DNA of 25,327 nt, from positions 1 to 25,327 of the IMG/VR virus record IMGVR_UViG_2671180357_000004; one strand, given 5' to 3'. Numbering within the stretch: the stretch's first letter is position 1; the number at the start of each line of letters is the position of its first letter. This DNA comes from a virus. Lineage: Duplodnaviria; Heunggongvirae; Uroviricota; Caudoviricetes. This document shows positions 7,875 through 21,830 of the stretch, piece by piece. A model generated the notes under the pieces. That model did no database searches and had not been told where the DNA came from. It worked only from the letters and a program-made list of their open reading frames with translations. The translations under genes and the position numbers were made by a program.

Positions 7875-8382
7875 AATATTAAAAATTTTTTAGAAAAGAA
7901 AAATTACTTCCCAGAACAGGTTTTAATAAAACCTGAACTGAACGAACGAAGTGAGTGAAGTTCACCTCGAACGAAGTGAGAGGTTGTCTTTTCAGGTAAT
8001 ACTCTCCCAGGGAGGTGAGTACAAAATTTCCTCACCAACCTGGTCGTTTCATAACCTGAAAAGTTATGACCTAAGTCTACTGCCAGCTTAGGCTTGGGAA
8101 GTTATGGATGACAGCACCCCAGAACCGAGATCTTCCCACACTTTATGAAGGGGAGTACTGGATTCAACCTCTCGAAACACTCCAGACTCGACAATCATAA
8201 AGTGACCCTTCTCTCTGCCCACTTTGGTTCCCCCTTCCCCAACCCCTAAACGGTGCCGGTTCTACGCTGGTAGTGAGCTTTTTTAAACCTGACGCCAGTG
8301 ACGCTATCCCCCACCCATCAGGTCGAGCTGCCGAAAGTATCCGGAAGCGGATAGATTGTATCACTGGTTAGTGGCGTTTTGA
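7875..8382. other. Roughly 510-bp non-coding region dense in short hairpins and direct repeats (candidate structured RNA, origin or packaging-related site)
   Basis: No convincing ORF. Inverted repeats CAGGTTTTA-ATA-AAACCTG, GTGAA-G-TTCAC, CTCCC-A-GGGAG, GGTGAG..CTCACC, CATAAC..GTTATG; direct repeat CGAACGAAGTGAG x2. Confidence 0.4.
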
Positions 8383-8401
8383 ATGGTAAGTACTTACCTA
8401 T
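8383..8401. repeat. AT-rich dyad motif, copy B (ATGGTAAGTACTTACCTAT; 14-bp perfect palindrome GGTAAGTACTTACC)
   Basis: Immediately 3' of the stop of the 8401..8631 gene. Confidence 0.55.
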
Positions 8402-8631
8402 TATATTAATTGATTAATTTCTCGCCCATGAAGCTGGACGTTCAGGGCAAACACCTCATTGATGAGTTCCCCTAACAGCTGCTCCACCAGCTCTTTGTGC
8501 TCGCCTGAATGAAGACATTTGAGCGACCATTCGTAGAGACTGAAAGCCTTATCGCGATCTTTCATCATGTCGCGCACTGTGGCCAGAAAATCGCTCTCAA
8601 CGAGCGCTACGACGTTCGTCGGGTATACCAT
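8401..8631 (-). CDS. Hypothetical protein (76 aa)
   Basis: ORF in track; ATG at 8629-8631; no recognisable domain. Confidence 0.45.
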   Translation of the reverse strand: MVYPTNVVALVESDFLATVRDMMKDRDKAFSLYEWSLKCLHSGEHKELVEQLLGELINEVFALNVQLHGREINQLI

Positions 8632-8772
8632 GATAGTTTTCCTTACTGTGGTTCATAAAATCGATTCTAGAGCGTCTGGAGAGGGACTCCAGTGGGTTCT
8701 GGAGGTGTAAAACGGTCTGGGAGTTGTTTGGAAATCACGTCTTAAAAAGCCTGCGTCTGTATATATTAATAA

Positions 8773-8791
8773 TTAGTACTTAGTTATTTAT
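8773..8791. repeat. AT-rich dyad motif, copy C (TTAGTACTTAGTTATTTAT; degenerate)
   Basis: Between the Dam-like gene stop and the 76-aa gene. Confidence 0.35.
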
Positions 8792-8833
8792 ATATACGGA
8801 AGCAGGTTCTCAAACTAACTCCCAGACTGGTGT

Positions 8834-9427
8834 TTACGCTGCCTTTTTACGTGGTCTCTTCTTCCTGACAACATTGGCAGGGTCATAACCACCCAGCTTT
8901 TTCATCACCGCCAGCGGTATCTTGCTGATGGTGTGCCCAGCTTCCTGACAGTAGCCACGGAAGATAAGCAACATGCTGCCACCAGGGTTGATGTTCACCT
9001 CCACCAGCCCAAGTTCAACATCCGGCTCAACGAACGCCACGCGGCCGCCAGACAAGATGACGGTTTCGTTGGCGCATTCAGCCGCACGCTCGTACCACTG
9101 CGTATCGAGGGATTGTGGTATCAGCATGACCGTCGTCACTCCACGCGCCTGCTCGCGAATGGCTGCGTCTATCCAGGGGGTGATTTTGGAGTAGGGCGGG
9201 TTAAGGAACGCCACAGTGCCAGGTTCTCCCCAACTGCACTTGAGCGCATCACGCTCAACACCGATAAAGTTCGGCAGGAGAGCATTATCTTTGTTGCAGG
9301 CGACGTCCACATCGAACTTTACGCCTATGTAACGTTGGATGGCGACAAACAACCACTGCGGTGTGCGCCAAAGGTCGCGAAGAGAGGCATCACGCTCTCG
9401 CTTTTTGATTTTTTCGGCTGCGATCAT
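8834..9427 (-). CDS. DNA N6-adenine methyltransferase, small phage Dam-like family
   Basis: 197 aa; RTPQWLF...FLNPPYS (NPPY catalytic motif); ATG at 9425-9427. Confidence 0.8.
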   Translation of the reverse strand: MIAAEKIKKRERDASLRDLWRTPQWLFVAIQRYIGVKFDVDVACNKDNALLPNFIGVERDALKCSWGEPGTVAFLNPPYSKITPWIDAAIREQARGVTTVMLIPQSLDTQWYERAAECANETVILSGGRVAFVEPDVELGLVEVNINPGGSMLLIFRGYCQEAGHTISKIPLAVMKKLGGYDPANVVRKKRPRKKAA

Positions 9428-9439
9428 TACTTTACTCTG

Positions 9440-9459
9440 ATAGGTAAATACTTACCTAT
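9440..9459. repeat. AT-rich dyad motif, copy D (ATAGGTAAATACTTACCTAT; 20-bp palindrome with 1 mismatch)
   Basis: 12 nt upstream of the Dam-like start codon, downstream of a terminator-like hairpin. Confidence 0.55.
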
Positions 9460-10790: not shown

Positions 10791-11813
10791 GTGAACAGTG
10801 ATAAGCGGAAACTTTATGTAAATACTCTAGCATTAGATTTGAATATCAAGCCATCCAGACCCTATTACCAAATATTATTAAAAACGATAAAAAAGAAAGT
10901 AGCCGATGGGCAGTCAAAGGCTGAAATCGTCGCTTCTATAAAGAACTCGAAAGAGCACCTTGCCAACATCACACCAACCGGTATTATCAACCATCAGAAA
11001 CAAAATATTAGCTTCAAAAAGACGATGCGCAGTTCTTCCGTTCGGGATGACCTACGTAAGCGAAGAATTGAGTACGTTTTAGAAAAGCGGGAGCTGGAAG
11101 CAAAGGATCGCGCAGCGCGAAAAGAACAAGATGAGAAACGTAAAGCTCTTGAAAAAATCAGGATGGAAAACTTACCTGAAATAGTAGAGAACTGCATCGA
11201 CTTTTCTAAACGTCGTGATTTCCAATTATGGTTTCACCGCACTGGTCAGTATCTGAACACCAGTGCTCAAGGCATTGTTAATGAATTCCTAGCTGAATTC
11301 AAAATTGAAAACCCCATAGTAAAAGCAGAGATTAAATTAATTGGGTCTCCTGAAACTCCTCTTATTGTTACCCAACTACCAATAGAGACTAAGAAAGTTG
11401 AATTTATACCCCAACCACTTCCGTCGAAAAGAGTAGGTGAAAAAGTAACGATTACCAGTCGCCCAGATCAGGCTAAATTCGCAGACTCCGTGGGGGTAAA
11501 CTGCCGCTATACCTGCGTTGTTACTGGTGTCAAAACCAGAGTGCGCTGTGAGGCTGCCCATATCGTTGAGCACAAAGCAGGAGGCGTAGACCATTATACA
11601 AATGGGCTATGGTTGCGAGTGGACATTCACCGTTTATTTGATGCCGGTTTATGCGCAATAGAGCCGTCGACAATGATGATCTACTTTAACCCGATGGTGT
11701 TGATCGACGACCCTGATTTGGAAAAATACCACGCTATCCCCATCTCTCAACCGGTTCGCCCGATAAATCCTGACTACCTTATGGCACGCTGGACGATCTT
11801 CAACATCCGATAG
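10791..11813 (+). CDS. HNH nuclease-domain protein (340 aa; uncharacterised N-terminal region plus C-terminal HNH core)
   Basis: C-terminus CVVTGVKTRVRCEAAHIVEHKAGGVDHYTNGLWLRVDIHRLFDAG matches the Cys...His...N...H...D HNH pattern. Only + strand gene in the phage-like block; visibly AT-rich; GTG start. Confidence 0.7.
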   Translation: MNSDKRKLYVNTLALDLNIKPSRPYYQILLKTIKKKVADGQSKAEIVASIKNSKEHLANITPTGIINHQKQNISFKKTMRSSSVRDDLRKRRIEYVLEKRELEAKDRAARKEQDEKRKALEKIRMENLPEIVENCIDFSKRRDFQLWFHRTGQYLNTSAQGIVNEFLAEFKIENPIVKAEIKLIGSPETPLIVTQLPIETKKVEFIPQPLPSKRVGEKVTITSRPDQAKFADSVGVNCRYTCVVTGVKTRVRCEAAHIVEHKAGGVDHYTNGLWLRVDIHRLFDAGLCAIEPSTMMIYFNPMVLIDDPDLEKYHAIPISQPVRPINPDYLMARWTIFNIR

Positions 11814-15521: not shown

Positions 15522-15540
15522 ATAAGTAAGTACATACATA
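15522..15540. repeat. AT-rich dyad motif, copy E (ATAAGTAAGTACATACATA; degenerate)
   Basis: Between the terminator at 15591-15621 and the thyA start. Confidence 0.4.
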
Positions 15541-15674: not shown

Positions 15675-15691
15675 GATAAGTACTCACTTAC
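15675..15691. repeat. AT-rich dyad motif, copy F (GATAAGTACTCACTTAC)
   Basis: Overlaps the stop codon of the 15684..16562 gene. Confidence 0.4.
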
Positions 15692-16796: not shown

Positions 16797-16816
16797 ATAG
16801 ATAAGCACTTACCTAT
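16797..16816. repeat. AT-rich dyad motif, copy G (ATAGATAAGCACTTACCTAT)
   Basis: Between the RuvC-like gene stop and the terminator. Confidence 0.5.
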
Positions 16817-21810: not shown

Positions 21811-21830
21811 TAAGTAAGTAAATACCTATC
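21811..21830. repeat. AT-rich dyad motif, copy H (TAAGTAAGTAAATACCTATC)
   Basis: In the 396-bp spacer upstream of the sbcD-like start. Confidence 0.4.

Follow-up and report, generated by a model that had tools for sequence, protein, structure and literature searches.

Here we report that a gap without protein genes in an SSU5-like phage-plasmid very probably is the gene for a highly structured non-coding RNA (ncRNA) of ~450 nt, predicted from its sequence to be read from the minus strand, in sense with the neighbouring genes. The DNA analysed is a stretch of 25,327 nt, called the window below (positions 1 to 25,327 of the IMG/VR record IMGVR_UViG_2671180357_000004), and the gap lies in it between the ORF76 gene and an RNase HI gene (rnhA). 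Our best reading is that the RNA stands alone, as a large structured ncRNA that was not previously described and that falls outside the catalogued families. At least four discrete sequence classes (1a, 1b, 2a and 2b) are found at this one locus after the ORF76 gene, and the window carries class 1a. The argument rests on the following elements:

Positions 7900-8348, minus strand: predicted structured ncRNA of class 1a, ~450 nt, delimited by consensus fold, covariation and conservation profile.
Positions 7936-8323, minus strand: ultra-conserved core with the multi-helix central domain, seen in pairwise identity, invariant runs and a whole-genome comparison.
Positions 8401-8631, minus strand: ORF76, coding for a three-helix protein of 76 amino acids (aa), the upstream neighbour of the RNA in every class.
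Positions 7198-7806, minus strand: rnhA (Pfam RNase_H, E = 6.9e-46), the usual downstream neighbour, which is dispensable.

The sequence constraint on the RNA is stronger than that on the flanking protein genes. When window positions 7100-8900 were aligned with their IMG/VR homologues (60 sequences), the gap core scored 0.92-0.996 per 30 nt on a column-identity measure and both flanking genes 0.82-0.88, with a sharp drop in conservation at ~8330-8390 and again at ~7880-7930. All four invariant runs of at least 14 nt in this 1.8-kb alignment fall inside the gap core. Over nine lineages the core is 91-99% identical, compared to 73-86% for ORF76 and rnhA, and in the phage-plasmid Cyrano it reaches 99%, with ORF76 and rnhA at 76% each. 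Comparison of a whole window-type plasmid with a Klebsiella relative gave a mean identity of 78% and five segments of at least 200 nt that reach at least 96%, among which the RNA core is the sole intergenic one. Within a class nearly every nucleotide is fixed, paired or unpaired, despite ~25% divergence of the neighbouring genes. Between classes, 1a and 1b are as diverged as their neighbours, and types 1 and 2 are unrecognisable to each other. In every lineage the limits of conservation match those of the structure, which speaks against recombination tracts as the only cause of this pattern.

The constraint acts on a specific secondary structure of the minus strand, which comprises ~17 helices. 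For 59 class-1a sequences RNAalifold places 135 pairs on this strand. Among the 58 distinct sequences 99.6% of the cells are paired, compared to 97.9±0.1% in shuffles, and 169 cells carry double changes, a number that none of 500 shuffles reached (47.8±10.3); slid structures gave 35-48% pairing and 3-22 double-change cells. After addition of class 1b, represented by five diverged relatives, compensatory double changes were detected in 31 of 104 pairs (shuffles 21.9±2.0, slid 2-4), with a canonical pairing of 98.8% and a covariation score of 0.320 (shuffled 0.193, slid 0.04-0.09). Compensatory base changes in related elements, for which an earlier note on this DNA had proposed to look, are hence present beyond both kinds of control, and the structured ncRNA that the note had offered as one candidate is now strongly backed by covariation that is strand-specific. 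Indeed, G·U makes up 13.5% of the pairs, the mirrored plus-strand structure is only 85.4% canonical, and the RNAalifold consensus energy is -103.6 kcal/mol for the minus strand, compared to -69.7 kcal/mol for the plus strand's own best. Because of the G·U pairs, the low mirror pairing and the weaker plus-strand consensus, duplex-DNA sites and a plus-strand RNA are excluded. Folded as a single sequence, the segment 7915-8335 has a minimum free energy of -149.4 kcal/mol on the minus strand (z = -3.15; 0 of 100 dinucleotide shuffles as good) and of -124.4 kcal/mol on the plus strand (z = -3.00; 1 of 100). One part of the structure, 8063-7989, has two mutually exclusive pairings with one compensatory change each, namely a local CAUAAC/GUUAUG hairpin and a long-range helix of CUUUUCAGG with CCUGAAAAG. 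We also considered that CUUCCCA might pair alternatively, or as a pseudoknot, with both UGGGAAG copies, and rejected this: the internal helix covaries, but the 3' copy is not retained in class 1b.

The RNA locus is non-coding. Substitutions between classes 1a and 1b are distributed 43/52/36 over the three phases, with no 3-nt periodicity, and 20 indel columns interrupt the core between these two classes. The earlier observation that 7875-8382 holds no credible open reading frame (ORF) stands, as the longest measure 44-66 aa, begin with non-ATG starts and keep neither frame nor position in relatives; a conserved protein gene at the locus, named in the earlier note as a possible counter-finding, was not found in relatives. 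Type I toxins or other small ORFs were rejected, with no hydrophobic peptide and no conserved frame. RefSeq annotation by PGAP places nothing at the RNA locus in 25 E. coli records sampled across a ranking of 233.

The catalogues hold no counterpart either. None of the 4227 covariance models of Rfam 15 matches at or above its gathering threshold in the whole window, so that the covariance-model search suggested earlier returned no family at the locus. A permissive Rfam scan of 7750-8850 gave sub-threshold noise from miRNA models only, mostly on an AT hairpin outside the RNA, and Rfam scans of class-2 and class-1b loci returned nothing relevant. The C4 covariance model found no match at E up to 10 (the conserved unit here is ~450 nt), and ARAGORN found no tRNA or tmRNA gene in the window. 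In the literature searched we found no description of an RNA or an origin at this locus.

The comparison of sequence classes shows that the RNA is a unit of its own. Class 1b was recovered by a search with ORF76 homologues and consists of Enterobacter-type contigs (L167-L171 and L174; nhmmer E ~1e-50, ~67% identity). Type 2 occurs in more distant Klebsiella SSU5-like plasmids, in which ORF76 is ~52% identical, the synteny is the same and the gap measures 570-585 nt. Neither blastn nor nhmmer profiles in both directions gave homology between types 1 and 2; the two may be either analogues or too far diverged to be recognised as related. Type 2, found in 30 PLSDB plasmids, is itself conserved and structured, with ten double-change pairs in nine sequences and 23 once the diverged L172 (class 2b) is included. 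It opens with a hairpin just past a -10-like hexamer, a promoter equivalent read by eye, and class 2a closes with a hairpin and a U7-8 run. A metagenome scan with the ORF76 alignment, counting loci with enough downstream DNA, found a type-1 (1a or 1b) or type-2 RNA at 64 of 64 ORF76 loci. The type-1 scores are bimodal (520-588 bits for class 1a, 163-175 bits for class 1b, none between), and the type-2 loci match the type-2 profile.

What follows the RNA varies. L084-like class-2 plasmids have a convergent gene in place of rnhA; the class-1b contigs L170 and L171 lack rnhA downstream of the RNA and continue with a Tad2-like gene, which has an apparent TTGACT/TAAATT promoter of its own (by eye); L172 has two RNase H genes there, and in L083 a Rha-family regulator is annotated downstream of the class-2 RNA. 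Because this neighbour changes and ORF76 is the sole constant one, we conclude that the RNA is an independent unit that is single-copy and linked to the ORF76 gene rather than to rnhA. ORF76 itself matches no Pfam family and belongs to PHROG 5343, which is without assigned function; as an identifiable RNA-binding protein it was rejected, with no lead from Pfam, PHROG or Foldseek. Three further observations concern these neighbours. In L167-L171 a weak Pfam match to Tad2-like (Thoeris anti-defence) proteins lies close to the RNA and hints at an anti-defence or early-gene island. In the IMG/VR phage-plasmid contigs L073 and L077, rnhA has ~1.95 kb of foreign DNA inserted into, or in place of, its 5' part (window ~7526-7789), with the RNA locus upstream intact. 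Two others, L042 and L050, share with the 1.8-kb query nothing except an rnhA segment that is 98.8-99% identical, which suggests that the RNase H gene moved recently into a different context.

The anatomy of the unit, in the direction of its predicted transcription, is as follows:

Positions 8385-8398, no strand assigned: dyad GGTAAGTACTTACC, the core of a 20-bp palindrome ATAGGTAAGTACTTACCTAT, 2 nt past the ORF76 stop and abutting the -35.
Positions 8355-8383, minus strand: predicted sigma-70-type promoter from a promoter scan, with invariant -10 positions.
Positions 8327-8348, minus strand: 5'-terminal stem-loop (helix 1), always paired, with a sequence that differs between lineages.
Positions 8286-8324, minus strand: helix 2, a long hairpin with a G-rich 5' arm GAUGGGUGGGGGAU; 15 pairs, 3-4 of them with double changes.
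Positions 7943-7985, minus strand: invariant 43-nt block, from repeat finder and alignment, mostly retained in the diverged class 1b.
Positions 7904-7935, minus strand: 3' hairpin (7935-7917, covarying), then the motif CUGGGAAGUA (7913-7904).
Positions 7876-7899, no strand assigned: AT/U-rich spacer, variable in sequence and length (27-46% identity, many indels).
Positions 7846-7875, no strand assigned: alternating purine-pyrimidine tract CACGCACGCGTGCGCACACGCGCG, then AGGG; conserved, and single copy in the window.
Positions 7816-7845, plus strand: terminator-like hairpin and T9, facing the RNA gene.

The promoter would consist of a -35 TTCAAA (8383-8378), a spacer of 17 nt and a TG-extended -10 TACAAT (8360-8355, TG at 8363-8362). 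The T, A, A and T positions of the -10 (TAnnAT) are invariant in type-1 alignments of 59 and 20 sequences, in surroundings of 50 nt that are merely 56-81% identical, and the 5' hairpin begins 6-8 nt downstream. From the invariant -10 and the covarying 5' hairpin we infer a transcription start at ~8348 from the RNA's own promoter. Helix 1 has compensatory double changes in four of its seven pairs at a nucleotide identity of 41-84%. Helix 2 is followed by an A-rich linker, the multi-branched central domain and then the 43-nt block, in which 13-nt direct repeats CUCACUUCGUUCG (7980-7968 and 7955-7943) stand on either side of the complementary CGAGGUGA. The 3' hairpin covaries by a change of UA to GC in eight sequences. 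The motif CUGGGAAGUA behind it is invariant within class 1a, and just its UCUGGG is also retained in class 1b, as is the CGCGCGAG core of the alternating tract. The 3' end of the RNA may lie after CUGGGAAGUA or in the U-rich tail, or transcription may read through. On the minus strand, 7816-7845 is an A9 and a hairpin in the rnhA 5' untranslated region (UTR), before the rnhA Shine-Dalgarno sequence. The alternating tract could potentially form Z-DNA.

The dyad at 8385-8398 may be an operator or a processing hairpin. As a separate observation, the palindrome ATAGGTAAGTACTTACCTAT has eight matches in the window with at most 3 mismatches, compared to 0.43 expected, and shares ATA..TAT flanks; it is seen at 7189-7202, 8385-8398, 9443-9456, 15525-15538, 15675-15688, 16800-16813 and 21813-21826. 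The copies sit at no fewer than seven gene junctions of the minus-strand operon, usually within ~25 nt past a stop or just before a start, and are candidates for the operator of a phage-plasmid regulator or for an RNA processing or stability hairpin. Class-2 loci have a related palindrome at the same place, with different spacing.

Much of what the earlier note had described at this locus is present. Its borders are real features, namely the dyad and the alternating tract, and its extent of 7875-8382 comes close to, without being identical with, the functional unit of ~7900-8348 and the promoter at 8355-8383. The 13-nt duplication CGAACGAAGTGAG is exact at both 7943-7955 and 7968-7980. All the inverted repeats listed exist: CAGGTTTTAATAAAACCTG at 7917-7935 (part of a longer repeat with 14-nt arms, 7912-7940), GTGAAGTTCAC at 7956-7966, CTCCCAGGGAG at 8004-8014, GGTGAG...CTCACC at 8014-8036 and CATAAC...GTTATG at 8050-8068. 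The spacers of the last two had to be corrected by one, to 11 nt (not 12) and 7 nt (not 8). Two of these five, GTGAA-G-TTCAC and CTCCC-A-GGGAG, cannot form as the hairpins described, having 1-nt loops; their bases join other, longer helices in the consensus fold. Of the functions suggested for an ncRNA, an antisense RNA is contradicted by the sense orientation within the surrounding operon, and an immunity RNA finds no match to the C4/CI family or any other Rfam family. A search of the rest of the window gave no significant complementarity. As DNA-level features, the lytic origin, packaging site and recombination site are not supported, in view of the G·U-maintained pairing, the flat GC skew and the lack of iterons beyond the one 13-nt duplication.

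The identity of the window as an SSU5-like phage-plasmid is seen at the locus itself, where 7700-8500 shows 94.8% identity with Salmonella phage SSU5 and ~86-90% with phage-plasmids of Klebsiella and Escherichia, Cyrano among them. The gene order in SSU5, on the window's minus strand throughout, is dam methylase, ORF76, gap, RNase H, small ORFs and Rha/Ant antirepressor, the last of which is represented in the window by:

Positions 5435-6250, same sense as the RNA: Rha-family antirepressor gene, ~1.7 kb downstream of the RNA.

The locus is housed in a replication and nucleotide-metabolism module with dnaE, primase and helicase. The gap sequence is contained in 688 PLSDB plasmids (Klebsiella, Escherichia, Enterobacter, Salmonella, Citrobacter and Cronobacter). 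Of 5426 complete E. coli genomes, 232 (4%) have it too, nearly always as a single copy on a plasmid; GTDB representative genomes have just two RNA loci, both in Kluyvera. The record of phage vB_KpnS_p4727 begins right beside the RNA locus. Elsewhere in the window, between the dam and ORF76 genes, a long AT-rich palindromic hairpin TATATATTAATAATTAGTACTTAGTTATTTATATATA occupies 8741-8814. Its conservation is moderate (0.84-0.90) and that of its flanks poor, its central part is similar to the dyad core AGTACT, and it gave only spurious miRNA-model matches. An HNH endonuclease gene (10791-11813, plus strand) lies in an island of low GC content (0.39-0.44) that interrupts the minus-strand operon, and looks like a homing-endonuclease insertion, SSU5 having a gap there. 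The R subunit of a type I restriction system (HsdR; 842-4078, plus strand) is cargo, where SSU5 has other genes.

As for the mechanism, transcription would begin at ~8348 from the TG-extended -10 promoter, beside the operator-like palindromic dyad; the RNA would start with a protective 5' stem-loop and would end near 7900 or be cut from a longer transcript. Since within a class the bases are nearly all fixed and no intermediates between classes exist, we suggest that the RNA recognises a partner by both sequence and shape and co-evolves with it. It would then be a specificity-bearing regulatory or ribonucleoprotein (RNP) RNA of the early replication and anti-repressor region, rather than a passive leader. 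If the gap is an RNA gene, a trans-acting RNP or regulatory RNA is what we rank first, plausibly but with low confidence in the mechanism. A cis-acting leader or antiterminator for the genes from rnhA to Rha/Ant comes next and is clearly less likely, a pre-primer for lytic replication that acts through an R-loop is somewhat less likely again, and other functions together weigh about as much as the leader. Going further, one may tentatively speculate that the RNA is a ribozyme or RNP core with rRNA-grade conservation that acts as a specificity determinant, with at least four mutually exclusive alleles swapped like immunity cassettes; lytic-replication priming, superinfection immunity or incompatibility, or anti-defence would be functions of this kind.

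Several points weigh against this explanation of the gap as an RNA gene. Complementarity within the 25-kb window is at chance level (19 exact runs of at least 10 nt compared to 15.9 expected, the longest of 12 nt being typical of shuffles), in a test to which interactions of 6-9 nt are invisible; an RNAduplex target scan was uninformative, since its energies are inflated for long sequences. In about half of the helices no pair varies within class 1a, so that the case for these comes from class 1b only, whose columns were taken from a sequence-based MAFFT alignment that fits the 3' domain poorly. Our scan found no canonical intrinsic terminator in class 1a, and the RNA could therefore be no more than the 5' part of the rnhA mRNA. 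The AF2 model of ORF76 (three-helix, pLDDT 79) is without a Foldseek match in the PDB, and ORF76 does not co-vary tightly with the RNA, its nucleotide identity in Cyrano being 76% compared to 99%. Finally, the near-invariance within a class could partly reflect the spread of a cassette by recombination and not selection at each site.

Among the rival explanations, a cis-acting structured leader, that is, an attenuator or processive antiterminator of the operon of rnhA, small ORFs and the Rha/Ant antirepressor, survives best, and we consider it unlikely overall. In function it would correspond to the immunity RNAs that P1 (c4), P4 (CI) and N15 (CA) derive from leaders. The RNA has the same sense as the antirepressor gene, a Rha-family regulator also occurs in L083, a strong terminator is missing in class 1a, the direct-repeat/complement/direct-repeat layout at 7943-7985 resembles alternative-pairing switches, and the class structure is reminiscent of heteroimmunity. 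However, the RNA is five to six times the size of c4 or CI RNAs and gives no C4-family match at E up to 10, its complementarity to downstream sequences is at chance level, the alternative pairing proposed for the 3' UGGGAAG copy is not retained in class 1b, and the downstream genes of L084 and of L170/L171 differ or have their own promoter.

Slightly less likely than the leader is an R-loop pre-primer and lytic origin in the style of ColE1 RNA II or T4 oriF/oriG. Here the structured G-rich transcript would hybridise to the AT-rich or polypurine template downstream, RNase HI, whose gene follows directly, would cut the transcript to yield the leading-strand primer, and the sequence classes would act like incompatibility groups. 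The setting within a replication module speaks for it, as do the AT-rich spacer and purine-rich run downstream in every class, the RNase H gene that follows in most lineages (two in L172), the RNA II-like size and multi-hairpin layout, a sense strand with G>C and conserved G-runs, and classes that are discrete and do not intergrade. On the other hand, our scan found no antisense, RNA I-like plus-strand promoter inside 7900-8348, and neither RNAI nor any other Rfam family matches. The hairpin and U-run of class 2a would release the RNA, rnhA is absent in several lineages, the GC skew has no inflection at the RNA locus, and DnaA boxes are missing, as are iterons other than the 13-nt duplication.

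A DNA-level cis site, such as pac/cos, a recombination or resolution site, a centromere or an ssi signal with DNA hairpins, is very improbable. The region is rich in hairpins, lacks genes and is bordered by palindromes on both sides, and the vB_KpnS_p4727 record starts beside it, but helices maintained by G·U, canonical in 98.8% of pairs for one strand and in 85.4% for the other, are the signature of a folded RNA and not of sites in duplex DNA. Moreover, ~17 nested helices over 450 nt are unlike known pac, cos, res and ssi sites, and a conserved promoter lies directly upstream. Missed small protein genes are hardly credible: one public record, Cyrano, does annotate a 135-nt ORF (44 aa, window 8088-8222, minus strand) and ORFs of 44-66 aa exist, but these begin with GTG or TTG and match no family, their frames and positions are not kept in other lineages, and the phase counts, indel columns and PGAP records given above are against them.

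A stand-alone ncRNA at this locus would matter for several reasons. SSU5-like phage-plasmids are common in clinical Enterobacteriaceae and spread resistance genes, and the controls of their lysis-lysogeny decision, replication and immunity are essentially uncharacterised. Hardly any protein gene of the element is as conserved as the predicted RNA, which is nevertheless unannotated and missing from Rfam; as a key element of control it is an obvious candidate. It would also be a rare addition to the large structured RNAs, from hosts that are well studied and easy to manipulate genetically, and the discrete classes at one locus provide a ready-made design for allele swaps.

Compared with known systems, CsrB/CsrC are likewise multi-hairpin RNAs of similar length; GGA motifs are, however, not enriched here (9 compared to 8.0±2.5 expected in class 1 and 10 compared to 10.7±2.7 in class 2), and a CsrA sponge was rejected. 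With c4 of P1/P7, CI of P4 and CA of N15, the RNA shares the position upstream of, and in sense with, an antirepressor-type gene in a phage-plasmid, and its allelic classes could set specificity. These immunity RNAs measure ~70-90 nt. The RNA described here, in contrast, has ~450 nt, gives no match to the C4 family and no detected complementary target sites, and is separated from rha/ant by several genes. ColE1 RNA II/RNA I resemble it in length, multi-stem-loop layout and G-rich sense strand, the adjacent rnhA provides a connection to RNase H, and the classes recall incompatibility groups; the differences are the missing RNA I promoter and family match, the class-2a terminator, the dispensable rnhA and the flat skew. 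GOLLD and ROOL are large structured ncRNAs found in phages and prophages, of roughly 600-800 nt. The RNA of the SSU5-like elements matches neither of their Rfam models, is smaller at ~450 nt, occurs in Enterobacteriaceae, does not stand beside tRNA genes and comes in several sequence-unrelated classes at one locus. It nevertheless resembles GOLLD and ROOL in being phage-borne and several hundred nucleotides long, in not being the leader of one fixed gene, and in its many covarying helices and strong sequence conservation.

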